Below, piece by piece: positions 3,401 through 6,400 of a stretch of 64,000 nucleotides of DNA (the stretch's first letter is position 1; each line of letters opens with the position of its first letter). The translations under genes and the position numbers were made by a program. This stretch comes from Mytilus trossulus. Lineage: Eukaryota. Where the stretch lies: positions 15,128,001-15,192,000 of the forward strand of contig NC_086383.1 of assembly GCF_036588685.1 (NCBI RefSeq), written 5' to 3'. Below the pieces are notes generated by a model. The model ran no database searches. It was not told the DNA's origin and was given only the letters and a program-made list of their open reading frames with translations.

Positions 3401-6400
3401 ACACGGTTTTGTTGGATAGCTGTACAGAGGATATCAAGGTTTGATTGTATAAGCACTATTGCATTTACTGATTTAATTTTTTTGAAAAAGCACTAAGAGT
3501 TTCATTTCAGTATATCTTTTTTTACTTTATTTATTATTAAAATGAATAAATATAAACTTGAAACATATTCAAGTGACCATGAACTGTGCATACATCGTCT
3601 AAAAGTTTTAATACTATGGATTAGGTCTGTGTATGATTTGACTTATTCATAAATGTTGATATTATCGAGGATATCTTAAGATAGTAATACTAACAATAGA
3701 TAATAACTTATATTGTTATTATACTTTTCAATTTGATGAAACACCTGTGTATTTACATTGTATCTAACAGTTACTAACTTTTTTTCATTTAGTTATGTTT
3801 TCTATGATAAGGATTGTCGCCTTATGGTACAGTTAATCAATAAATCCAACAAAACAAAAAAACATTTCTGAAGAAACGTCTATTCATCGTTTGTTTTTGA
3901 CGTATTCACGGGGTTCATTGTTTTTATTTGCAGATAACAGACAGTCTAAACTTTTTGGATAACTTTGTACTTGTCTACAATGAAGCTTGCCAGATAACCA
4001 TTGCTGGGGATATAAAATACTACGTCAAAGGAAAAAATGGTCAATTAGTACTTCCAGATTACGTCACTACCGATGTTTGTCCAAGTGAATGTACTATGAA
4101 AGGAAAATGTCATCAAGGTCAATGTATATGCAACAGTGAATATCATGGACCAGATTGTTCAGTGAAAGTTGGATCTGTTCCATTTATTCATTTTATTTAT
4201 GGGTATGGATGAATATGAAAATAATAAAAAAATGTAATTAAGAGAGCATCAATTATTAGAGGTAGTTCAAAAAACGAGAAGAAACTACAAAGCACTGACA
4301 GTTACAAACTGTAAATAAGTATACAATTGAATACAAATACTATTTGTATTTGATTGCATAACGACGCCATAAGCCCAGTCGTTGTGATTAACACCATAAT
4401 TTTGAATTCAATCGTTTGTTAAACAATTTGAGAAATATTTGACAAAACAATTAAAGATCGGCTCCCTCAACAACAAATTACATACGATCGATTATGCCTG
4501 GCTTTTACGTTTGTTTTTTTCGATCATACAGTTTCATGTGGAAGTGCAGTTATACATATTTTGTATTTAATACATTTCGTATTACCGTGCCTGATAAAGA
4601 TAGAAAGGAACTGGTGCTTTAGATGCAATAAATCTATTTAGTCTTATATTCAGTCATCAATGTTAACTTTTTAGGTATATGTTTACTTTGAATTATTCGA
4701 AAAACTAAGGATTTTCTTACCCCAGGAGTAGATTACCTTAGCCGTATTTGGCACAACTTTTTGGAATTTTAGGTCCTCAATGCTCTTCAACTTTGTATTT
4801 GTTTGGCTTTTTAACTATTTTGATCTGAGCGTCACTGATGAGTCTTATGTAGACGAAACGCGCGTCTGGCGTATAAAATTATAATCCTGGTACTTTTGAT
4901 AACTATTTACACCACTGGGTCGATGCCACTGCTGGTGGACGTTTCGTCCCCGAGGGTATCACCAGCCCAGTAGTCAGCACTTCGGTGTTGACATGAATAT
5001 CAATTATATGGTCATTTTTATAAATTTTCTGTTTACAAAACTTTGAATTATTCGAAAAACTAAGGATTTTCTTACCCCAGGAGTAGATTACCTTAGCCGT
5101 ATTTGGCACAACTTTTTGGAATTTTAGGTCCTCAATGCTCTTCAACTTTGTATTTGTTTGGCTTTTTAACTATTTTGATCTGAGCGTCACTGATGAGTCT
5201 TATGTAGACGAAACGCGCGTCTGGCGTATAAAATTATAATCCTGGTACTTTTGATAACTATTTACACCACTGGGTCGATGCCACTGCTGGTGGACGTTTC
5301 GTCCCCGAGGGTATCACCAGCCCAGTAGTCAGCACTTCGGTGTTGACATGAATATCAATTATATGGTCATTTTTATAAATTTTCTGTTTACAAAACTTTG
5401 AATTATTCGAAAAACTAAGGATTTTCTTACCCCAGGAGTAGATTACCTTAGCCGTATTTGGCACAACTTTTTGGAATTTTAGGTCCTCAATGCTCTTCAA
5501 CTTTGTATTTGTTTGGCTTTTTAACTATTTTGATCTGAGCGTCACTGATGAGTCTTATGTAGACGAAACGCGCGTCTGGCGTATAAAATTATAATCCTGG
5601 TACTTTTGATAACTATTTATATCAAGTGAATGTCGCATGCTGAAATATAAAACTTAACACGCTTTTCCAACGTAATGTCTATACATGTAGTTAGTGTGTA
5701 CCAAACTTGAAACGCATTTGAAACCTTGAATCTTTCATAAATATTCGAAGGTTATTGATTCTTCTCCTCCAATATACAGTTTCGAACTGATAAAAACACG
5801 TAAAGAGAGGCGTTGTGTAGTGGAAAACACATCGGACTACTTTCACAAAAGTTGCTTGTTATATCCCAGTTCCGGAGAGAATGTTTCAAGAACTGTAATT
5901 TTGGCTTTCCCGTATTAATATTTGCGAGCATGGTATTGAAAAACGACCGTAGTTTGTCGGAAAGGGAACGACAATAAGCTGAACCGTACTAAACCAGAAC
6001 TATATTTCTTCACGTAAAAGACAACCTCGTAGATTAAAAAAAAGAACAAGCTAATGCCATAACAAATCAGTACTCACACTCACAAATTAGAAAGGAATAT
6101 ATGAATTGCAATAACTTGTTTTCTATTCACAAACACGTGCAGATTTTGTATTTTCGTTAAATAGCGGAAACTACTCACCTATGATTTGTCTGTTTTTTTT
6201 ATAAAATATTTTTTTAAACTGTTTAAAATCATTGTAAAATACTGAATTTGTATTGTATCACTGAAAGTTATTCATAGTTCTGAATGTAACCCCTGTAATA
6301 CCATTATTTCTAGAGAGGATGACGTAAATAGTTTATGTAATATTCGTCAGGACGACTGTCAAACTGCACATGTTATAACAGACAATTTGATGTACAGTAC

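Follow-up and report, generated by a model that had tools for sequence, protein, structure and literature searches.

A tandem array of three hammerhead motifs in an intron of a Mytilus VWDE-like gene, very probably a recent retrozyme insertion

Introduction

How did three hammerhead motifs come to be located in a single intron of a VWDE-like gene of Mytilus trossulus, and what would they do when the gene is transcribed? The motifs are carried by a short tandem repeat in the window analysed here, a stretch of 64,000 nucleotides (contig NC_086383.1, forward strand) to which all coordinates refer. We consider it very probable that the repeat is a recent, probably polymorphic insertion of an abundant Mytilus non-LTR retrozyme in the intron of an intact VWDE-like gene. 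The mussel retrozyme family is already known, as are its self-cleavage and its circular RNAs, and the array is an ordinary copy in an ordinary setting, one of the thousands of copies of a published family. The questions that we address are those of its structure, its age, the route by which it was inserted and its consequences for the host transcript.

Structure of the array

The array was found on the plus strand at 4685-5619, where a period of 355 bp is exact over 935 bp (2.63 identical units) with 0 differences at 580 paired positions. This bears out the initial annotation of a 355-bp tandem array of 2.6 units without differences. The array is 5'-truncated and terminates at the 3' end shared by its family. 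Of the span first called, 4681-5619, the end stands whereas the start was placed 4 nt too early. The end repeats (4685-4909 and 5395-5619) are identical to each other. The unit size (355 bp, repeated 2.63 times) falls within the ~150-450 bp expected for a metazoan non-LTR retrozyme, and the unit is also low in GC (38.6%, against an expected value below 45-50%) and non-coding, its only frame being one of 88 aa from stop to stop on the minus strand. At the left junction, seven bases (4680-4686) were observed to match the unit 5 nt out of register, as if slippage or microhomology had operated at the truncation point. L001, one of the metagenome loci described below, starts at the base equivalent to 4686, but this is also where its contig starts.

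Cleavage at the predicted sites would release a first monomer at 4867-5221 (plus strand, 355 nt, 38.6% GC) and a second of the same length at 5222-5576 (plus strand). A long GC-rich hairpin is present once in each full unit (4914-4971, with a second copy at 5269-5326, plus strand); its start is 5-7 nt downstream of the 3' end point that the copies share. Folding of the whole unit was no better than that of shuffled sequences (z -0.5), and simple patterns for donor-like, acceptor-like or poly(A) motifs had no match on the sense strand of the array. Two short segments were noticed inside the GC-rich hairpin. The B-box-like 11-mer at 4917-4927 occurred in 36 of 2000 shuffles and was picked after looking; there is no tRNA gene behind it, and none was found in the 64-kb window. 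The 9-nt segment at 4940-4948 is perfectly complementary to the hammerhead core, a match that arose in 19 of 2000 shuffles. A core-blocking switch formed through this complement was not supported, the pair probability being 0 in the circle model.

Hammerhead motifs

Three type I hammerheads are located on the plus strand at 4829-4872, 5184-5227 and 5539-5582, with predicted cuts after C4866, C5221 and C5576 respectively. The core bases are complete, and when checked by hand the motif has five pairs in stem I (one of them G-U), four in stem II and two in stem III, which is closed by a GCGC loop. The segment ACGCGCGU at 4858-4865 forms a palindrome. Each of the three hammerheads matches Rfam family RF00163 with 33 bits (E 4e-6), and an Rfam scan of the whole window at the gathering score returned no matches because 33 bits is 1 bit below the gathering score of 34. 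A 25-nt core pattern was matched three times in the window and not once in any of 100 shuffles. The family matches, the intact core and stems and the palindrome agree with the earlier claim of three complete type I hammerheads with a palindromic stem III. A candidate minus-strand hammerhead in the GC-rich hairpin was rejected, as neither CUGANGA nor an Rfam match up to E 10 was found.

It had further been proposed that these motifs cleave as dimers. In a 406-nt stretch with two motifs at 37 C, the double hammerhead was calculated to lie +4.2 kcal/mol above the free ensemble as compared with +12.6 kcal/mol for the single one, and cleavage as a dimer is therefore plausible. That dimers are required did not hold, because the published mussel monomer already cleaves: the retrozyme monomer of M. 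galloprovincialis cleaves itself slowly, at ~0.1/min, a rate measured with T7 polymerase at 37 C (PMC7229834). Eight of nine Xenopus retrozyme dimers were reported to show no cleavage in vitro (bioRxiv 10.64898/2026.07.22.740005). The active hammerhead was never the favoured fold in nearest-neighbour folding, which is not decisive as the model has no magnesium, tertiary contacts or positive control, and fold probabilities were not counted as evidence of activity.

Family and abundance

Contigs from three DNA sequencing runs (X1, X2 and X3) and one RNA run (X21), four of the 24 runs listed, were aligned to the region 3850-5039. The contigs that fit this region number 99,906, 59,646 and 53,357 in the three DNA runs and 640 in the RNA run, values which are not copy numbers. 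Their depth is overwhelmingly on the 355-bp unit and most of them are 90-99% alike. The exact 355-nt head-to-tail joint was observed in 13, 9 and 11 contigs of the three DNA runs. Dispersed high abundance was thus seen in all three DNA runs, and the window itself holds a second copy of the family at 12066-12199 (plus strand). This copy is old and decayed; it is 80% identical and its catalytic core is broken, and it has the same 3' end point. It is located ~300 nt past the host stop codon and ahead of the first AATAAA (12357), and may lie within the host 3' UTR. In the RNA run, go-back joints of 343-353 nt were found in five contigs. These may represent circles, multimers or DNA, and contigs of this kind do not distinguish the source locus.

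M. galloprovincialis has been reported to contain ~5,000 type I hammerheads in repeats of 350-390 bp. Its retrozyme circles were abundant, RtcB was shown to carry out the ligation in vitro, and two mussel retrozyme families have been described (PMC7229834). Every feature that we compared (355 bp, 38.6% GC, one type I hammerhead per unit and a Mytilus host) agrees with this family. From these features, we are highly confident that the array belongs to it. The text of the hammerhead motif had no match in the searchable literature, and in the literature searched, which lacks most subscription papers, neither the locus nor intronic copies in mussels nor the shared 3' end were found to be described. 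The hammerhead pattern was found at three loci in metagenome contigs (L001, L002 and L003) and at none in viral contigs or in prokaryote genomes. Among the matches listed, X1, X2 and X3 show large piles of loose ends at 4873-4875 and 4947 whose sequence departs from the unit but is common to these ends. Such piles are probably the sign of a second subfamily that carries this hammerhead core, which agrees with the description of two families in PMC7229834.

Host gene and intron

The array is flanked by two exons of a VWDE-like gene on the plus strand, an upstream exon at 3934-4202 which encodes an EGF domain and a downstream exon at 6314-6431. The intron between them (4203-6313, plus strand) is 2111 nt in length, or 1176 nt without the array. 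Both exons have AG/GT borders and are joined in frame. A stop-free path of 447 aa over nine exons is identical at 399 of 442 positions to an M. galloprovincialis protein named VWDE-like (P0002), and the host gene therefore looks intact in this haplotype. The flanking exon had six matches among 29 candidates, all of them Mytilus-named and two of them VWDE-like. The borders, the in-frame join and the 447-aa path uphold the initial annotation of the array as intronic and in sense with the VWDE-like pre-mRNA. An RNA contig of run X21 spans 3932-4202 and stops at the exon borders; since it shows 19 differences, it may come from a paralog or from another allele. The intron flank at 4210-4649 is not covered by any RNA contig of that run.

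Predicted cleavage within the host intron

In the strong form of the earlier claim, host transcription would lead to efficient double-hammerhead cleavage, the intron would be broken before splicing and VWDE-like mRNA would be lowered in carriers. We regard this as unlikely. All three motifs are complete and in sense, and the double hammerhead is far cheaper than the single one in the folding model. As an illustration, a rate of 0.1/min at each of the three sites would leave 26% of transcripts cut after 1 min and 78% after 5 min. The mussel rate is nevertheless a slow one and was obtained at 37 C with T7 polymerase (PMC7229834), and while fast intronic ribozymes block splicing, slow ones do not (Fong 2009 as quoted in PMC10919898). 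Splicing can be tuned by an intronic ribozyme, as in Cpeb3, where the ribozyme has a half-life of 2-3 min and lies 9.9 kb from the splice site (PMC10919898). Here, however, the cut sites are only 1447, 1092 and 737 nt ahead of the 3' splice site, a distance of 0.7-1.4 kb against 9.9 kb.

The distribution of Xenopus retrozyme copies bears on both sides of the question, as 42-44% of them are intronic and yet this is fewer than intron size predicts (bioRxiv 10.64898/2026.07.22.740005). The depletion after correction for size speaks for such an effect, and the large intronic fraction speaks against it. Because 42-44% of the Xenopus copies are intronic, we consider the sense intronic position of a retrozyme to be common and ordinary. 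A segregating allele whose double hammerheads cut the nascent intron fast and lower VWDE-like mRNA, with host Pol II transcription as a source of retrozyme circles, is likewise doubtful; if it did hold, young retrozyme insertions would be one class of naturally occurring expression variants of mussels. On these comparisons the effect of the array on host splicing is probably small, and some release of the 355-nt monomer from the intron is plausible.

Age of the insertion and identity of its units

The identity of the units had been taken to imply a recent insertion from a circular template, and the first part of this claim is supported. With 0 changes in 935 bp, the upper 95% bound on change since insertion is 0.32% per site, whereas other individuals differ in the left flank at 11 of 715 and 3 of 221 positions (~1.5% between flanking alleles). 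Given this contrast, the array is likely to be younger than typical alleles at this locus and polymorphic, unless gene conversion or assembly polishing has equalised the units. An empty site was not recovered from the contigs of X1, X2, X3 and X21 on 3850-5039, a stretch that covers the left junction. The long flank contig of X2 ends at 4564. That of X3 ends at 4685 with one unmatched letter at a depth of 3.7, which is compatible with an empty allele with TTTA overlap or with an error and was not counted as evidence. The sequence common to both junctions consists only of TTTA (4 bp) or TATAT (5 bp), where in a metazoan non-LTR retrozyme any duplication of the target site would be expected to exceed 4 bp. 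The insertion has its 3' end at 5616-5619 (plus strand), up to 43 nt past the last cut, and the TTTA found there is shared with 4682-4685; it is possibly a 4-bp duplication or microhomology.

The second part of the claim, a circular template, does not follow from unit identity. A circle, as in the circular-template model (PMC7761336, PMC4209133), is the best account of the identical units, but the same picture would result if a young donor had supplied an uncut multimer or if the array had expanded locally. A Penelope-like RT primes in uncut RNA (PMC11167929), and local unequal crossing-over is preferred as a model elsewhere (bioRxiv 10.64898/2026.07.22.740005). Under local growth, an insertion of 1.63 units would have reached 2.63 units by unequal crossing-over, or the units would have been homogenised by gene conversion, and their identity would say little on the template. 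The 225-bp end repeats do permit unequal crossing-over. However, as these repeats (4685-4909 and 5395-5619) are identical, a recent insertion of more than one unit would still be needed and a single RT run is simpler, so that we find local growth improbable.

A still weaker explanation is that the perfect identity or the number of units is an artefact of assembly or polishing. No contig spans the array and short-read contigs cannot count units, but the exact 355-nt joint occurs in three DNA runs and the left junction is contained with 0 differences in a 525-nt X1 contig (4187-4711), which has only 27 letters past 4684 and possibly derives from the source sample itself. We hold such an artefact to be very unlikely.

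Shared 3' end and route of insertion

The 3' ends of the copies were observed to fall at nearly the same distance past the cut site, at +43 in the array, ~+43 in the decayed copy, +41 in L001 and +40 in L002. A fixed 3' end at +40 to +43 is therefore found at four of five loci; the exception is L003, one of the three metagenome loci, which is rearranged and lacks the shared end. Since the array ends 43 nt past the cut, the template RNA would have continued across the cut site. Among the matches listed, loose ends with mixed flanks form piles in two of the four runs: X1 has 171 records at 4909, and X21 has 13 at 4907 and 6 at 4909. No pile at 4909 is among those listed for X2 and X3. The piles at 4873 and 4875 were equally numerous (221 and 191 in X1, again among the matches listed). 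The depth upstream of the shared 3' end exceeds the depth after it in all four runs, as is expected of copies that have this end in common and are truncated at their 5' side. A tandem miniature LTR element (a TRIM or plant-type LTR retrozyme with an LTR of 225 bp and an internal part of 130 bp) is highly improbable, for although the array parses as 225-130-225-130-225 with TG and CA near those borders in the unit, the hammerhead is of type I and not III, none of four examined copy ends finishes in the CA of the unit, the positions of these ends differ by as much as 3 nt unlike integrase products, and no tRNA gene was found in the window.

A fixed end of this kind recalls the anole Penelope-like protein, which nicks AT-rich DNA and primes at an internal point of the RNA that lies downstream of the hammerhead, using mainly uncut RNA (PMC11167929). 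Penelope-like elements (PLEs) are marked by 5' truncation and partial tandems and are the most abundant elements of M. galloprovincialis (PMC8557442), and Xenopus retrozymes have been linked to PLE pLTRs (bioRxiv 10.64898/2026.07.22.740005). By analogy, we infer that a PLE mobilises the mussel retrozyme, and we lean towards the view that its Penelope-like RT would start internally at the shared 3' end (+40 to +43). An autonomous PLE (a frame with RT and GIY-YIG) was found neither in or beside the array nor elsewhere in the window, and among the 11 long frames of the window the sole RT match is a broken LINE-like piece. This fragment (58200-59851) is situated in a duplicated block and matches Pfam RVT_1 (E 5e-15), and its nearest solved structures are R2 and LINE-1. 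The segment 58200-58700 was considered as a Penelope-like partner and was rejected because it is LINE-like.

Other repeats were also observed in the window. One is a head-to-tail duplication of ~23 kb (14722-37296 and 37296-61078) whose copies are 95-99% identical. One copy contains an open frame of 1253 aa (45511-49272), which has a period of 270 bp and did not match Pfam, and in place of this frame the other copy has frames of 664 and 598 aa (22571-26336). Further dispersed, inverted or short tandem repeats are located at 1368-2029, 2385-2810, 11768-11974, 14270-14499, 18046-18376 and 56348-57303.

Proposed mechanism

In the reading that we prefer, a recent retrozyme insertion, a Penelope-like RT-endonuclease expressed from another genomic locus would nick an AT-rich site. 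Synthesis of cDNA would begin within the retrozyme RNA, at 40-43 nt past the cut and close to the base of the GC-rich hairpin. A single run would copy 2.63 units and then truncate. The template would probably be a circle, with an uncut multimer as a possible but clearly less favoured source. Upon transcription of the host gene, the three ribozymes would cut slowly, as single or double hammerheads, and mostly later than the 3' splice site is made. Some monomers or circles of 355 nt may then arise from the nascent RNA or from the intron after its excision, and the host mRNA would be little affected.

The value of the locus is modest and twofold. A young, intact and probably polymorphic allele with three ribozymes in a short intron provides a clean test case of whether such an insertion changes host splicing and whether transcription of the host supplies the pool of circles. 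In addition, the shared 3' end offers a concrete site at which to examine the link of retrozymes to Penelope-like RTs, which has been proposed but not proven.

Comparison with known systems

The intronic ribozymes of amniotes include conserved hammerheads. They also include the HDV-like ribozyme of Cpeb3 (PMC10919898). Like the array, these ribozymes are self-cleaving motifs that lie within introns in sense orientation. They are single, conserved and domesticated, whereas the array is a young copy of a mobile repeat without sign of conservation.

Penelope-like elements and their non-autonomous derivatives (PMC11167929, PMC8557442, PMC4209133, bioRxiv 10.64898/2026.07.22.740005) are similar to the array in their partial tandems and 5' truncation, and also in the fixed 3' end downstream of the hammerhead and the AT-rich target. 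The array differs from them in having no RT/GIY-YIG frame, in its canonical rather than minimal hammerhead and in that no tail of 30-40 bp was seen. Amphibian satellite 2 and the axolotl retrozymes likewise have tandem units of 330-350 bp, a palindromic loop III and a possible dimer fold; the axolotl motifs cleave poorly as monomers, as against ~0.1/min for the mussel monomer (PMC7229834).

The closest system is the retrozyme of Mytilus galloprovincialis (Cervera and de la Pena 2020, PMC7229834; clones Rtz_Mg353, GenBank MN642551-MN642576). When compared by description no difference was found, where insertion ends and intronic copies are not among the subjects covered in the accessible text of that report. 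The two have in common the genus, the size range, the low GC content and the tandem arrangement. Furthermore, both possess a type I hammerhead with a 2-pair stem III and a tetraloop, a very high copy number and a presence in RNA.
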